Shown here piece after piece: positions 3,654-53,226 of a stretch of 64,000 nt of DNA (the stretch's first letter is position 1; each line of letters starts with the position of its first letter). The notes beneath the pieces were generated by a model. The model was not told where the DNA came from and did not search any database. It was given only the letters and a program-made list of their open reading frames with translations. Origin of the DNA: a virus (Duplodnaviria; Caudoviricetes); the IMG/VR virus record IMGVR_UViG_3300028591_000073, positions 1 through 64,000 of that record; one strand, 5' to 3'. The translations under genes and the position numbers were made by a program.

Positions 3654-4580
3654 TTATGGGTTCGTATCATTTTCATTAAATCCAACATTTAATGTTAACA
3701 CATCAAGATATTGTAATAAATCTAATGATTCTTTTTGTTGGTTGGAACTCGATTTTTCTAACACCCATACATCATCTCGTTTGACGGTATAGTTACTAAC
3801 AATGCCTGTGTAATCGATTCTTTTTACATTATCACTGACAGTTGTAATGGAAATATCACGTCCACTGATATATGTGATGGCATCTCCAGAAGGTGTCGGT
3901 GGTGTGATATCAATCGACACCCATGTGCCATCTCCACGCAAGAATTTATTTTGATCACCTTTTAATGGAGCTGGGACTAATCCACTTGTGCCATCTGTCG
4001 TTGATGTTGCACCGGTAAAATCTGTGTATATCTTAATATCCAGATGATCCAAGATATCTTTGTATTCGATCGTAAATGATGCTGTTGTTTCATCCAATAT
4101 GAGTTTATTATCATGATTATGCAATTCCTCTTTCTTTGCATAATCCGATAAATCAATATCAATGTTGTCAATCTTATCATTTAATTCATGATATCGATCA
4201 TCACATTCAGCATTCAATTGTGAAACTATTTCTTCTAACGATTCTACGTTTTCAACTGTTGCATATTTTGAAAAATCTATATTTGCAATTTCTTCTTGTA
4301 ATGAAGCGATTGCATCATTGAATGTGTCATTGTTAACCTTATCACCAATTAATGATTCCAGATGTTTTAATGAAGATTCCGTGTTAGAAAAAATAGTTTC
4401 TTCTTGATAATAGCTATGTGTTAAATATGGGAGATTCCGATAAGATCGTTTACCATCACCAACCTTTGCTCGAAAATCTTGATCATTCACGATCTCAATA
4501 CATAATGTACCACTTGGAATGATATACCCTGTCATAGATGTTGCATTCCATTGTTGGGTTGTTTTTATCATATGATCCAT
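3654..4580 (-). CDS. Tail-fibre-associated structural protein
   Basis: SD GAAAGGAG supports ATG 4580 (ORF track starts at 4646). N-terminal GTLCIE...KVGDGKRSYRNLPY fibre module, a coiled-coil middle and the common fibre motif GATSTTDGTSGLVPAP...KFLRGDGTW. Confidence 0.7.
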   Translation of the reverse strand: MDHMIKTTQQWNATSMTGYIIPSGTLCIEIVNDQDFRAKVGDGKRSYRNLPYLTHSYYQEETIFSNTESSLKHLESLIGDKVNNDTFNDAIASLQEEIANIDFSKYATVENVESLEEIVSQLNAECDDRYHELNDKIDNIDIDLSDYAKKEELHNHDNKLILDETTASFTIEYKDILDHLDIKIYTDFTGATSTTDGTSGLVPAPLKGDQNKFLRGDGTWVSIDITPPTPSGDAITYISGRDISITTVSDNVKRIDYTGIVSNYTVKRDDVWVLEKSSSNQQKESLDLLQYLDVLTLNVGFNENDTNP

Positions 4581-4663
4581 GCTATAAACTCCTTTCGAAA
4601 TATAAGTTAATCCCCGGTTTTCCCGTGTAGCATACAAAATTTGCATTTTTTTATTTTTTGATA

Positions 4664-4680
4664 TATATATTATTTATATG
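4664..4680 (+). promoter_or_regulatory. Candidate early promoter TATATATTATTTATATG
   Basis: Aligns with the motifs at 52170-52186(-) and 53154-53170(-). Resembles the TATATTA(C/T)-type early promoters described for phiKZ/AR9-type phages. Confidence 0.55.
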
Positions 4681-4744
4681 AATTAAGATCGTATTCAAAT
4701 TTATGTTCTTAATTTACCAAGCGTCTAACAGATGCTTTTTCATC

Positions 4745-4833
4745 CGACCCAAGCATGTCGTTAAACTGCTCAATCGTAAACATAAGACCAGCTCATGTCT
4801 TAAGAAACCGAGCGATATTCCAAAGGAGGAATT
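4745..4833 (+). ncRNA. Structured 5' leader: two tandem predicted H-type pseudoknots plus SD
   Basis: CGAC-CCAAGCAT-GTCG-TTAAAC-TGCTC and TAAGAC-CAGCTCAT-GTCTTA-AGAAACC-GAGC share one architecture with different stem sequences. Bases 4782-4833 recur identically at 53075-53126(-). Confidence 0.6.
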
Positions 4834-4837
4834 CATT

Positions 4838-5485
4838 ATGAAACCGAATACAACACTGACAGAAGCCATTAAAATCGCCAAGATGGAAACATCTGCTCGT
4901 CTGAAGACGGCATGGCAGCAGTACCTTAAGGCCGAGGCTGAGATTGCACGAATCAATCTTGAGAATATTATGGCTGAAATCGTCAATCTTCTCACAGACC
5001 ATGAAATCCTGTGCGAAGAACTGCCGGACACTGGTATCACGGATACTCATTATGAGTACTTCAAAAACAAGGTAGGAATTCATTTCTCCCTTCTTGATTC
5101 CCAGATAGGTAAGCGCGAAATCGTAATTGCAGTGGATGATTACGATGTCAGAGCCGAAACATTCACATTGATTGCCGGATGGGTATATGACGGCAATATC
5201 TCTGACATCGTAATGGCACCGATTGCCATTCGTCTTCCGCGTGATGAGTGGACAGGTCTCCCGCGTGAAGAAGACCTCGATGAAATGTTTTTGCTCAAAG
5301 AGGTCGACATCAAAACACGAGAGCTCGTGTTTGAGCACGGCATTAAGACAGGAATCACTCTCGAAGATGCAATCGAATATATCGAGGATGAATTGATGGT
5401 GTATGAAGACCTTGTGACCAAGAAAGGTTATAAGGTTGCAACACCTATCTCACCTGCATCGAAAGACAAGGATCTCGGACTCTAA
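4838..5485 (+). CDS. Orphan acidic protein, probable early gene (215 aa)
   Basis: AAAGGAGG SD before ATG 4838 (ORF track starts at 4703, inside the leader). Lone + strand gene among - strand structural genes, with its own promoter, leader and palindromic terminator. Confidence 0.75.
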   Translation: MKPNTTLTEAIKIAKMETSARLKTAWQQYLKAEAEIARINLENIMAEIVNLLTDHEILCEELPDTGITDTHYEYFKNKVGIHFSLLDSQIGKREIVIAVDDYDVRAETFTLIAGWVYDGNISDIVMAPIAIRLPRDEWTGLPREEDLDEMFLLKEVDIKTRELVFEHGIKTGITLEDAIEYIEDELMVYEDLVTKKGYKVATPISPASKDKDLGL

Positions 5486-5496
5486 TCATCATTGCA

Positions 5497-5520
5497 ATCC
5501 CCCGGCATATGCCGGGGGAT
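5497..5520. terminator. Perfect palindrome ATCCCCCGGCATATGCCGGGGGAT
   Basis: 24-bp perfect palindrome between convergent genes. Confidence 0.7.
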
Positions 5521-5607
5521 ATACATGAATAATGTTGATGTTATCATTTTTGATTTTTTGTTTGAAGTATCTGTTACTTTTCTCTCTCTTGTTCTTGTAC
5601 AATTTCA

Positions 5608-53074: not shown

Positions 53075-53126
53075 AATTCCTCCTTTGGAATATCGCTCGG
53101 TTTCTTAAGACATGAGCTGGTCTTAT
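53075..53126 (-). repeat. 52-bp exact inverted copy of the pseudoknot+SD leader at 4782-4833
   Basis: ATAAGACCAGCTCATGTCTTAAGAAACCGAGCGATATTCCAAAGGAGGAATT, 52/52 identical. Confidence 0.95.
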
Positions 53127-53153
53127 AATAATATTATTGATATATTTCTATAT

Positions 53154-53170
53154 CATATTAATTATATATA
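53154..53170 (-). promoter_or_regulatory. Candidate early promoter TATATATAATTAATATG
   Basis: 15/17 match to 4664-4680; upstream of the same leader. Confidence 0.55.
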
Positions 53171-53193: not shown

Positions 53194-53213
53194 GAGGGCC
53201 CATATGGGCCCTC
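53194..53213. terminator. Perfect palindrome GAGGGCCCATATGGGCCCTC
   Basis: Ends the minus-strand structural operon; followed on the minus strand by TTCTATTATTTT. Confidence 0.75.
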
Positions 53214-53226
53214 ACATTATATCATT

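Follow-up and report, generated by a model that had tools for sequence, protein, structure and literature searches.

Coremin is a short RNA element found in beny-, cucumo- and many other eukaryotic RNA viruses (PMC6546385; PMC10520033). Its 20-mer is composed of a 3-bp GUC/GAC hairpin with the loop CGAA, followed by G-UUAAAC-UAC (PMC10520033). Stalling of the exoribonuclease Xrn1 requires a YGAD/YGNNAD loop, the conserved spacer and a second hairpin, hp2, the last of which is called strictly necessary for Xrn1 resistance (PMC6546385, PMC10520033). Besides Xrn1, coremin stalls scanning ribosomes, and it drives -1 frameshifting, also in an E. coli screen (PMC10520033, PMC10321173). This activity is directional and is exerted from the 5' side; natural coremin loops of 5-8 nt have been mentioned, of which those of 7-8 nt were not characterised (PMC10520033). 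A Watson-Crick form, xrRNA-WCC, has been described in Sanxia picorna-like virus 5 and in two selected variants; here the spacer end is the pairing partner of the loop, and frameshifting is stimulated without hp2 (PMC10321173). The published coremin searches covered RNA viruses only (PMC10520033), and in papers to 2023 the three-dimensional structure of the coremin fold is described as unsolved. A flaviviral exoribonuclease-resistant RNA (xrRNA) also blocks the bacterial enzyme RNase J1, which indicates that such blocks are not enzyme-specific.

Judged by its sequence, the element described here represents a novel form of the coremin class of pseudoknots that is carried by phages, and a function is proposed for it below. 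The source record is a jumbo phage from IMG/VR of 294,548 bp with 37.6% G+C, and the window, meaning the whole stretch of DNA that was analysed, comprises its first 64 kb. The pseudoknot locus is a 191-nt gap between the divergent gene 3654-4646(-) and a gene encoding a protein of 215 aa, and its features are collected in Table 1.

Table 1. Features of the pseudoknot leader and its second copy in the window (window coordinates; SD, Shine-Dalgarno; MFE, minimum free energy)
Feature	Position	Strand	Characteristics
Promoter-like AT-rich block	4639..4680	+	Overlaps the start codon of the divergent gene 3654-4646(-)
AT hairpin	4681..4714	+	Inverted repeat, 13-nt arms, 85% complementary
GC hairpin then U-run, terminator- or attenuator-like	4719..4740	+	Present in the MFE fold
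Pseudoknot 1 (unit 1), canonical, coremin-like	4745..4771	+	Best match of covariance model R1 in the genome, 40.8 bits
Pseudoknot 2 (unit 2), lineage-specific variant	4783..4813	+	R1 matches weak, 13-16 bits
SD hairpin	4814..4834	+	MFE fold; adjoins pseudoknot 2; position equals that of the second hairpin of coremin
Downstream gene	4838..5485	+	215 aa, no known family; ATG 4838 behind the SD
Second window copy of pseudoknot 2	53095..53125	-	52 nt identical to 4782-4833

Comparative analysis confirmed the prediction that the 5' leader of gene 4838-5485 contains, on its sense strand, two H-type RNA pseudoknots that are self-contained and lie next to each other. Stem 1 of unit 1 pairs CGAC (4745-4748) with GTCG (4757-4760) around the loop 4749-4756, of which 4749-4750 constitute L1, and is followed by the linker L3, TTAAAC (UUAAAC in the RNA, 4761-4766). 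Stem 2 of this unit is formed between TGCT (4767-4770) and AGCA (4752-4755), that is, 4 bp plus A.C at 4751/4771. In unit 2, the 6-bp stem 1 is composed of TAAGAC (4783-4788) and GTCTTA (4797-4802) with the loop 4789-4796, and after the linker AGAAACC (4803-4809) a second stem is formed by GAGC (4810-4813) with GCTC (4791-4794); this loop and its partner were also found with the canonical spacer in L050 and L075. The stems, loops and linkers of both units, together with the two upstream hairpins, agree in sequence with their description in the first-pass annotation. The two units alone prove little, because their shared word GACC-N5-ATGTC is no rarer than chance within the window (16 matches at ≤1 mismatch versus 13 expected), and the decisive evidence comes from outside the window, from 166 homologous elements. 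Positions 4767-4771 and 4810-4814, the 3' strands of knots 1 and 2, can also pair with each other over 5 bp including one U.G. The MFE fold of the leader, whose nested structure shows a modest gain over shuffles (z = -2.3), uses this pairing, a nested alternative in which neither stem 2 can form. The near-palindromic nature of the stem-2 sequences could account for it as a by-product, or it could reflect switching between two folds.

Upstream of the knots, the AT-rich block of ~40 nt has the pattern GATATATATAT-N-ATTTATATGA and is repeated at genome positions 94905, 264855, 272323 and 87445(-) and at ~53138-53170(-) of the window. At all six sites a short hairpin follows directly after the block, which is probably an early-type promoter of this phage with a structured 5' end. 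The hairpin and T-run at 4719-4740 failed a consensus terminator scan; they are kept in the two relatives L133 and L134, where the loop differs and one G.U is replaced by G-C. GC-rich palindromic hairpins of the type GGGCCC-ATAT-GGGCCC or CCCCGGC-ATAT-GCCGGGG, which are terminator-like and located just 5' of promoter blocks or knots, occur at 53195-53215(-) of the window and at ~98870-98890 of the genome, and a similar hairpin heads a small-ORF cassette in the relatives. Downstream of the knots, a strong Shine-Dalgarno sequence, AAAGGAGG (4822-4829), sits in the loop and 3' arm of the SD hairpin, and a similar SD hairpin was found after five of six unit-2 copies. Homologues of the 215-aa gene product with 76-79% identity are encoded in two related phages, in which the leader is likewise kept. 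The ORF call made by the program, 4703-5485 (ATG 4703), reads in frame across both pseudoknots. The true start is almost certainly ATG 4838 behind the SD; this call is probably too long, and automatic annotation may over-extend the gene.

The family to which unit 1 belongs was collected as 166 distinct versions of a ~27-nt motif from IMG/VR and GenBank phages of many host phyla. The motif is composed of stem 1 (N-GAC/GUC-N), an 8-nt loop, UUAAAC and then 5 nt that pair with the loop. Stem 1 of this form is present in all 166 pattern-derived copies, and the loop reads C, mostly U, four variable bases, A, and mostly U or A. Between loop positions 5-9 and the five bases after UUAAAC, 92.8% of cells are paired over the 166 copies, versus 24-44% when the register is shifted; stem 2 has all five pairs in 116 copies and lacks one of the five in a further 42, with many different helices in use. 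In an alignment of 91 sequences, for which the search pattern had left the stem-2 columns free, 93.0% of the stem-2 cells are paired versus 27-51% in slid controls, 137 cells are changed on both sides versus 46.5 in shuffles, and the covariation score is 0.466 versus 0.169 in shuffles, a value reached by none of 500 shuffles. Double compensatory changes were found in four of the five pairs of stem 2. Unit 1 is included in alignment A1, which shows the family-wide covariation, and the earlier proposal of two H-type pseudoknots with constant GACC, ATGTC and AAAC and a compensatory second stem is backed by it.

G.U wobbles are tolerated on this strand only, with U.G at one pair in 43 of the 166 copies. 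The outer pair of stem 1 covaries as well (C-G, U-A, A-U, G-C), and in further copies found by the model on the same contigs the middle pair changes from A-U to U-A. Six further copies, e.g. L088:67-94(-), possess a GUC/GAC stem, as in coremin. In the spacer R-UUAAAC-U, UUAAAC is invariant in the collected set and is also seen in model-found copies, with a rare extra A; this invariance is partly imposed, as several of the "invariant" columns were fixed by the search patterns, and among the model-derived extra copies the stem orientation and the number of A residues in L3 can vary. No conservation was detected in the flanks outside ~27 nt, and the element is thus a stand-alone module, which argues against a larger ribozyme-like structure. 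Taken on this comparative evidence, it is a widespread and strongly supported structured RNA family that is absent from Rfam.

Within the jumbo phage genome, unit 2 is present as an identical 32-mer at four positions, 4782(+), 103483(+), 249619(+) and 53126(-), each 8-17 nt 5' of the SD of a different gene. The genes behind these copies encode mutually unrelated products: the 215-aa protein, a 250-aa HNH_3 endonuclease and proteins of 180 aa and 44 aa. The second copy in the window lies ~12 nt after the hairpin of a promoter block and before the SD of the 44-aa ORF 53071-52937. The HNH_3 gene, 103545-104297(+) (Pfam PF13392, E = 6e-6), is possibly a free-standing homing endonuclease. Variants of unit 1 occur at 249585 and 98911, and the covariance model matches in the genome amount to three canonical and four unit-2-type elements; a further array of four units near 215.9 kb has its stem written GUC...GAC. 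A pattern derived from the stem and linker of unit 2 recovered the two relatives and chance matches without loop complementarity and nothing else, and unit 2 is for this reason regarded as lineage-specific. The covariation of stem 2 anticipated among homologues holds across the canonical family and is not seen among the direct homologues of unit 2 (four copies here and those of two relatives), in which stem 2 does not vary and the only change is from U-A to U.G in stem 1. Stem-1 U.G wobbles are found in both units of the relative L133, which fits an RNA on this strand.

The same two relatives carry, at L133:1120-1375 and L134:1140-1405, a cassette with an ORF of ~45 aa and its own GC hairpin and SD between two units, and this insertion corresponds to positions 4760-4767 of the window and 103290-103480 of the genome. 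There, the first unit, without a stem-2 partner, is located before the cassette, and the second unit plus unit 2 are located after it. A small ORF homologous to that of the cassette lies 5' of the unit-2 copy at 103483. From this arrangement, unit 1 of the window looks like a recombinant (hybrid) of two units that are separate in the relatives, which would explain its weaker stem 2, and the knots at the cassette borders may serve as recombination points for module shuffling.

Beyond this lineage, a degenerate unit-1 pattern retrieved the element from more than 110 IMG/VR contigs, whose flanks and G+C are unrelated. These loci are not chance matches, since ~95 of the first 100 score above 30 bits with the covariance model. 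With a query of 34 nt centred on the motif, 112 phage records of GenBank were identified as carriers of the element, of which 85 are Staphylococcus phages (including 80, phiETA, phiMR11, 55, 29, 88, X2 and B236); the other carriers include Lactobacillus, Latilactobacillus, Anoxybacillus, Rhizobium, Nostoc, Acaryochloris and Pasteurella phages and a crAss-like phage. A blastn search of 1.3 kb around the element against GenBank phages gave no match. In 185,579 species genomes there are only 33 occurrences of the canonical 26-mer, scattered among Bacillota, Bacteroidota, Chloroflexota, Patescibacteria, Planctomycetota, Campylobacterota, Alphaproteobacteria and others, with none in Gammaproteobacteria. 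The 5,426 complete E. coli genomes, searched with the canonical sequence, which leaves room for divergent variants, contain no full-length copy and only 19-nt partial matches inside a gene.

The idea that an Rfam search might identify a known family was not borne out: no family of Rfam 15 matches the element, either at gathering thresholds over the whole window, at E≤10 over 4000-5600, or at E≤1 at five other loci with canonical copies, and the covariance models of preQ1-I, pistol, hatchet, twister, fluoride and SAM-II have no match on it. Literature searches returned no description of the motif sequence or of a phage pseudoknot motif of this kind, no paper joining coremin with bacteriophage, and no description of exoribonuclease-resistant phage pseudoknots in connection with RNase J. 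In the record of phage B236 (KP893290, 21303-21341), and also in B166 and B122, the knot is annotated as a BPROM-predicted promoter, and small annotated ORFs cover it in phages 88, X2, 55 and 29; the annotations concerned, all of Staphylococcus phages, are probably wrong.

The genomic context was counted over 143 copies dereplicated by their flanks. The nearest long ORF upstream is on the same strand in 108 cases versus 17 on the other. The knot starts a median of 17 nt after the stop codon of the upstream ORF (first quartile 9 nt, third quartile 116 nt), and the next start codon follows at a median of 77 nt 3' of the knot (third quartile 151 nt). In eight of the 143 copies, among them L013, L080, L057, L169, L197, L248 and L253 (Nostoc phage NMeng1), a tRNA starts 3-10 nt after the knot, so that the leader fragment released by RNase P would carry the knot at its 3' end. 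A terminator-like hairpin lies just upstream of the knot in 8 of 143 copies and downstream of it in 0-3, a slight excess by which the knot tends to head an RNA segment, not to end one. In Staphylococcus phage B236, Lactobacillus phage phiEF-1.1 and Anoxybacillus phage A403, it is located between the gene for a minor head protein and the highly expressed scaffold and capsid genes, and at other loci it is followed by a primase gene, a tRNA or small ORFs. Tandem pairs also occur in other phages, with two to four units in some. A hairpin 0-5 nt after stem 2 was found in 59 of the 143 copies versus 51-61 at six control offsets, which is no enrichment, and the mean folding energy after stem 2 equals that of the controls.

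Based on these data, a possible mechanism was proposed in which the knot is a cofactor-free mechanical roadblock in cis that acts in a direction-dependent manner and stabilises or insulates the downstream RNA, a proposal that is the likeliest of those considered and that we regard as evenly poised between right and wrong. Stem 1, with 3-4 bp around GAC/GUC (or GUC/GAC), is followed by the cytosine-led L1, and L3, rich in A, is presumably placed in the stem-1 minor groove. Any enzyme threading along the RNA from its 5' side would be halted by the knot. Such enzymes could include a 5'-3' exoribonuclease, for example RNase J where the host has one, and possibly also 5'-end-dependent scanning endonucleases or ribosomes. 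The RNA 3' of the knot, which in the window contains the SD and gene 4838-5485, would then outlive the RNA 5' of it. The structure, its conservation, its strand, its intercistronic or leader position and its likeness to coremin are established. Roadblock activity and the stabilising outcome are what we infer from the likeness to coremin and from the stalling of Xrn1 and ribosomes by coremin itself, and the very wide host range fits a cofactor-free mechanism. Counted against the roadblock are the position of the knot, nearer the upstream stop than the downstream start and equally compatible with a function at the end of that upstream cistron, the lack of enrichment of hp2 in the family, and the stem 2 of unit 1 with only 4 bp plus A.C. 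A specific link to RNase J of Bacillota, as suggested in the first-pass annotation, finds no backing: the enzyme is present in 23 of 31 motif-bearing genomes versus 10 of 14 control genomes. RNase J is missing from a Segatella genome with the motif, and the motif is also borne by a crAss-like phage. A stronger version of the proposal, to which we give somewhat less than an even chance, is that the 27-nt phage knot, with a 5-bp stem 2 and without hp2, would represent, in DNA phages of many bacterial phyla, the minimal exoribonuclease- and ribosome-resistant fold of coremin, and would serve as a portable module by which the relative stabilities of polycistronic phage RNA segments are set; it would then be the first natural xrRNA class in prokaryotic systems and the first common to viruses of bacteria and of eukaryotes.

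Other partners than a 5'-3' nuclease could be considered for the knot. It may be directed at the ribosome, by causing a pause at the upstream stop codon, by blocking sliding or re-initiation, or, in the case of unit 2 and the SD hairpin, by tuning initiation. Only the ribosome is a partner available in every host phylum found, coremin halts ribosomes during scanning and promotes -1 frameshifting, in E. coli as well, the median and first-quartile distances from the stop codon are close to the spacing at which downstream pseudoknots act, and unit 2 sits just 5' of an SD that is held in a hairpin. The distances to stop and start codons vary widely at their third quartiles, however, no ribosome arrives at some of the copies, which lie 5' of tRNA genes or 3' of terminators or promoters, and neither a slippery site nor an extended reading frame was found at the copies read, which leaves this explanation doubtful. 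The strong conservation of the unpaired positions could instead point to a pocket of GAC/GUC, the L1 cytosine and UUAAAC that serves as a binding site for a protein or ligand or as a catalytic core. Small ligand-binding pseudoknots resemble the phage knot in architecture, the T4 gene 32 leader pseudoknot (a translational operator) and the preQ1-I topology (a riboswitch) could serve as models, and several copies per genome before different genes would be expected of the operator of a regulon. We regard a binding site or active RNA as unlikely, as no phage protein is common to Staphylococcus, Rhizobium, cyanobacterial, Bacteroidota and Patescibacteria hosts, the gene contexts fit no single pathway, no riboswitch or ribozyme of Rfam 15 matched at E≤10, and the copies before tRNA genes are ill-suited to a translational operator. 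Protection of the upstream RNA is judged quite unlikely. Here, the knot would block 3'-5' exonucleases after intergenic or RNase P cleavage, or leave a stable non-coding RNA, in keeping with its closeness to the upstream stop codon, with the tRNA-adjacent copies and with the four-unit array of this genome, which is located at an operon end just before a terminator. Against this, the known activity of coremin runs from the 5' side, many copies lie 3' of an intrinsic terminator, where the upstream 3' end is already protected, and in the window only the promoter and leader hairpins lie upstream.

Two further readings are still less probable. The resemblance to ToxI and CptI noted in the first-pass annotation suggested a type III antitoxin mimic, a decoy that would neutralise ToxN-family abortive-infection toxins of the host, and the size, the pseudoknot topology, the two to four tandem units and the A-rich linker are indeed similar. 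Membership in the type III antitoxins was rejected, as there is no array of near-identical direct repeats and no Pfam or PADLOC toxin downstream. The mimic itself is very improbable: the units are dissimilar and not identical head-to-tail repeats, no toxin gene is nearby, and the four unrelated genes downstream encode no toxin or defence family, with one HNH_3 match as the only Pfam or PADLOC hit. The element is dispersed as single copies before structural genes and tRNAs, and its sequence hardly differs from one host phylum to the next, unlike that of type III antitoxins, each of which is specific for its own toxin. A signal at the DNA level, such as an operator, promoter or recombination site, is scarcely credible, although three GenBank records place a predicted promoter over the element and units lie at the borders of shuffled gene cassettes in this lineage. 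The pseudoknot covariation, the frequent G.U pairs, which would be A.C on the other strand, and the strong sense-strand bias speak for an RNA, and a site in double-stranded DNA needs no loop complementary to a downstream pentamer.

If the knots do halt 5'-3' decay and other machines, as the roadblock mechanism predicts, phages would control the fate of their RNA with a device of plant, fungal and insect RNA viruses, and the question of common descent or repeated invention would arise. The raised expression of scaffold and capsid genes within one late operon without a promoter would thereby be explained, and a portable 27-nt stabiliser or insulator would become available for bacterial synthetic biology. 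The hundreds of covarying versions would also constitute a rich natural set for RNA structural biology. Even if the proposed function is wrong, an RNA family absent from Rfam is present in the well-studied phages of Staphylococcus aureus.

Among known systems, the BWYV P1-P2 knot and the leader knots of T4/T2 gene 32 are comparable in size and topology and likewise combine an L1 cytosine with a short stem 1 that is spanned by an A-rich L3. Like the knots of the window, that of gene 32 is part of a phage 5' leader; it is tied to one gene and its protein. The phage element has no sequence likeness to either and precedes many unrelated genes and tRNAs, and knots of the BWYV type do not stall Xrn1. 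ToxI, CptI and TenpI share short, repeatable pseudoknotted units of ~35 nt, and in contrast to them the phage element has no identical tandem repeats, cognate toxin gene or processing signal. The 5' stabilisers of Bacillota (ermC, the aprE leader, SP82 and the STAB-SD of cryIIIA) protect downstream RNA by a 5'-proximal obstacle; they are simple hairpins or bound ribosomes and transcript-specific, not a portable conserved pseudoknot.

With coremin, on the other hand, the phage element shares a hairpin of 3-5 bp followed by the spacer G-UUAAAC-U, a loop that starts with a pyrimidine and ends with A-D, and a location in 3' UTRs or intergenic regions, sometimes in tandem. The hairpin length of coremin hp1 (3-5 bp) is found in the phage family, with 6 bp in unit 2, and R-UUAAAC-U of the phages agrees with the 10-nt spacer G-UUAAAC-UAC. 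The GUC/GAC stem of coremin is present in some phage copies and GAC/GUC in most. The loop rule of coremin, YGAD (4 nt) or YGNNAD (6 nt), does not hold for the phage loop of 8 nt, in which only the first Y and the final A-D agree; the coremin heptaloop CGAGUAA, which is Xrn1-resistant, is one base shorter than the phage loop CUGAGUAA. hp2 (at least 4 bp after the spacer) is not conserved in the phage family, with the SD hairpin after unit 2 as a local exception. Unlike coremin, the element resides in DNA phages of bacteria and has an 8-nt loop and a regular 5-bp Watson-Crick stem 2. This last feature is reminiscent of xrRNA-WCC, with which it shares a canonical antiparallel pseudoknot between the loop and the end of the spacer, and in the phage family 91-93% of the stem-2 cells are paired and four pairs are changed on both sides. 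The stem 2 of xrRNA-WCC has 3 bp, including the C of AAAC, with a loop of 4 nt, whereas that of the phages has 5 bp and starts one base after the C of AAAC, in a shifted register. The linker adenosines of xrRNA-WCC are predicted to occupy the stem-1 minor groove, as is presumed for L3 of the phage knot. On the evidence of these shared sequences and pairings, coremin of the eukaryotic RNA viruses, as xrRNA-C and in its Watson-Crick form, is the closest known relative of the phage element.
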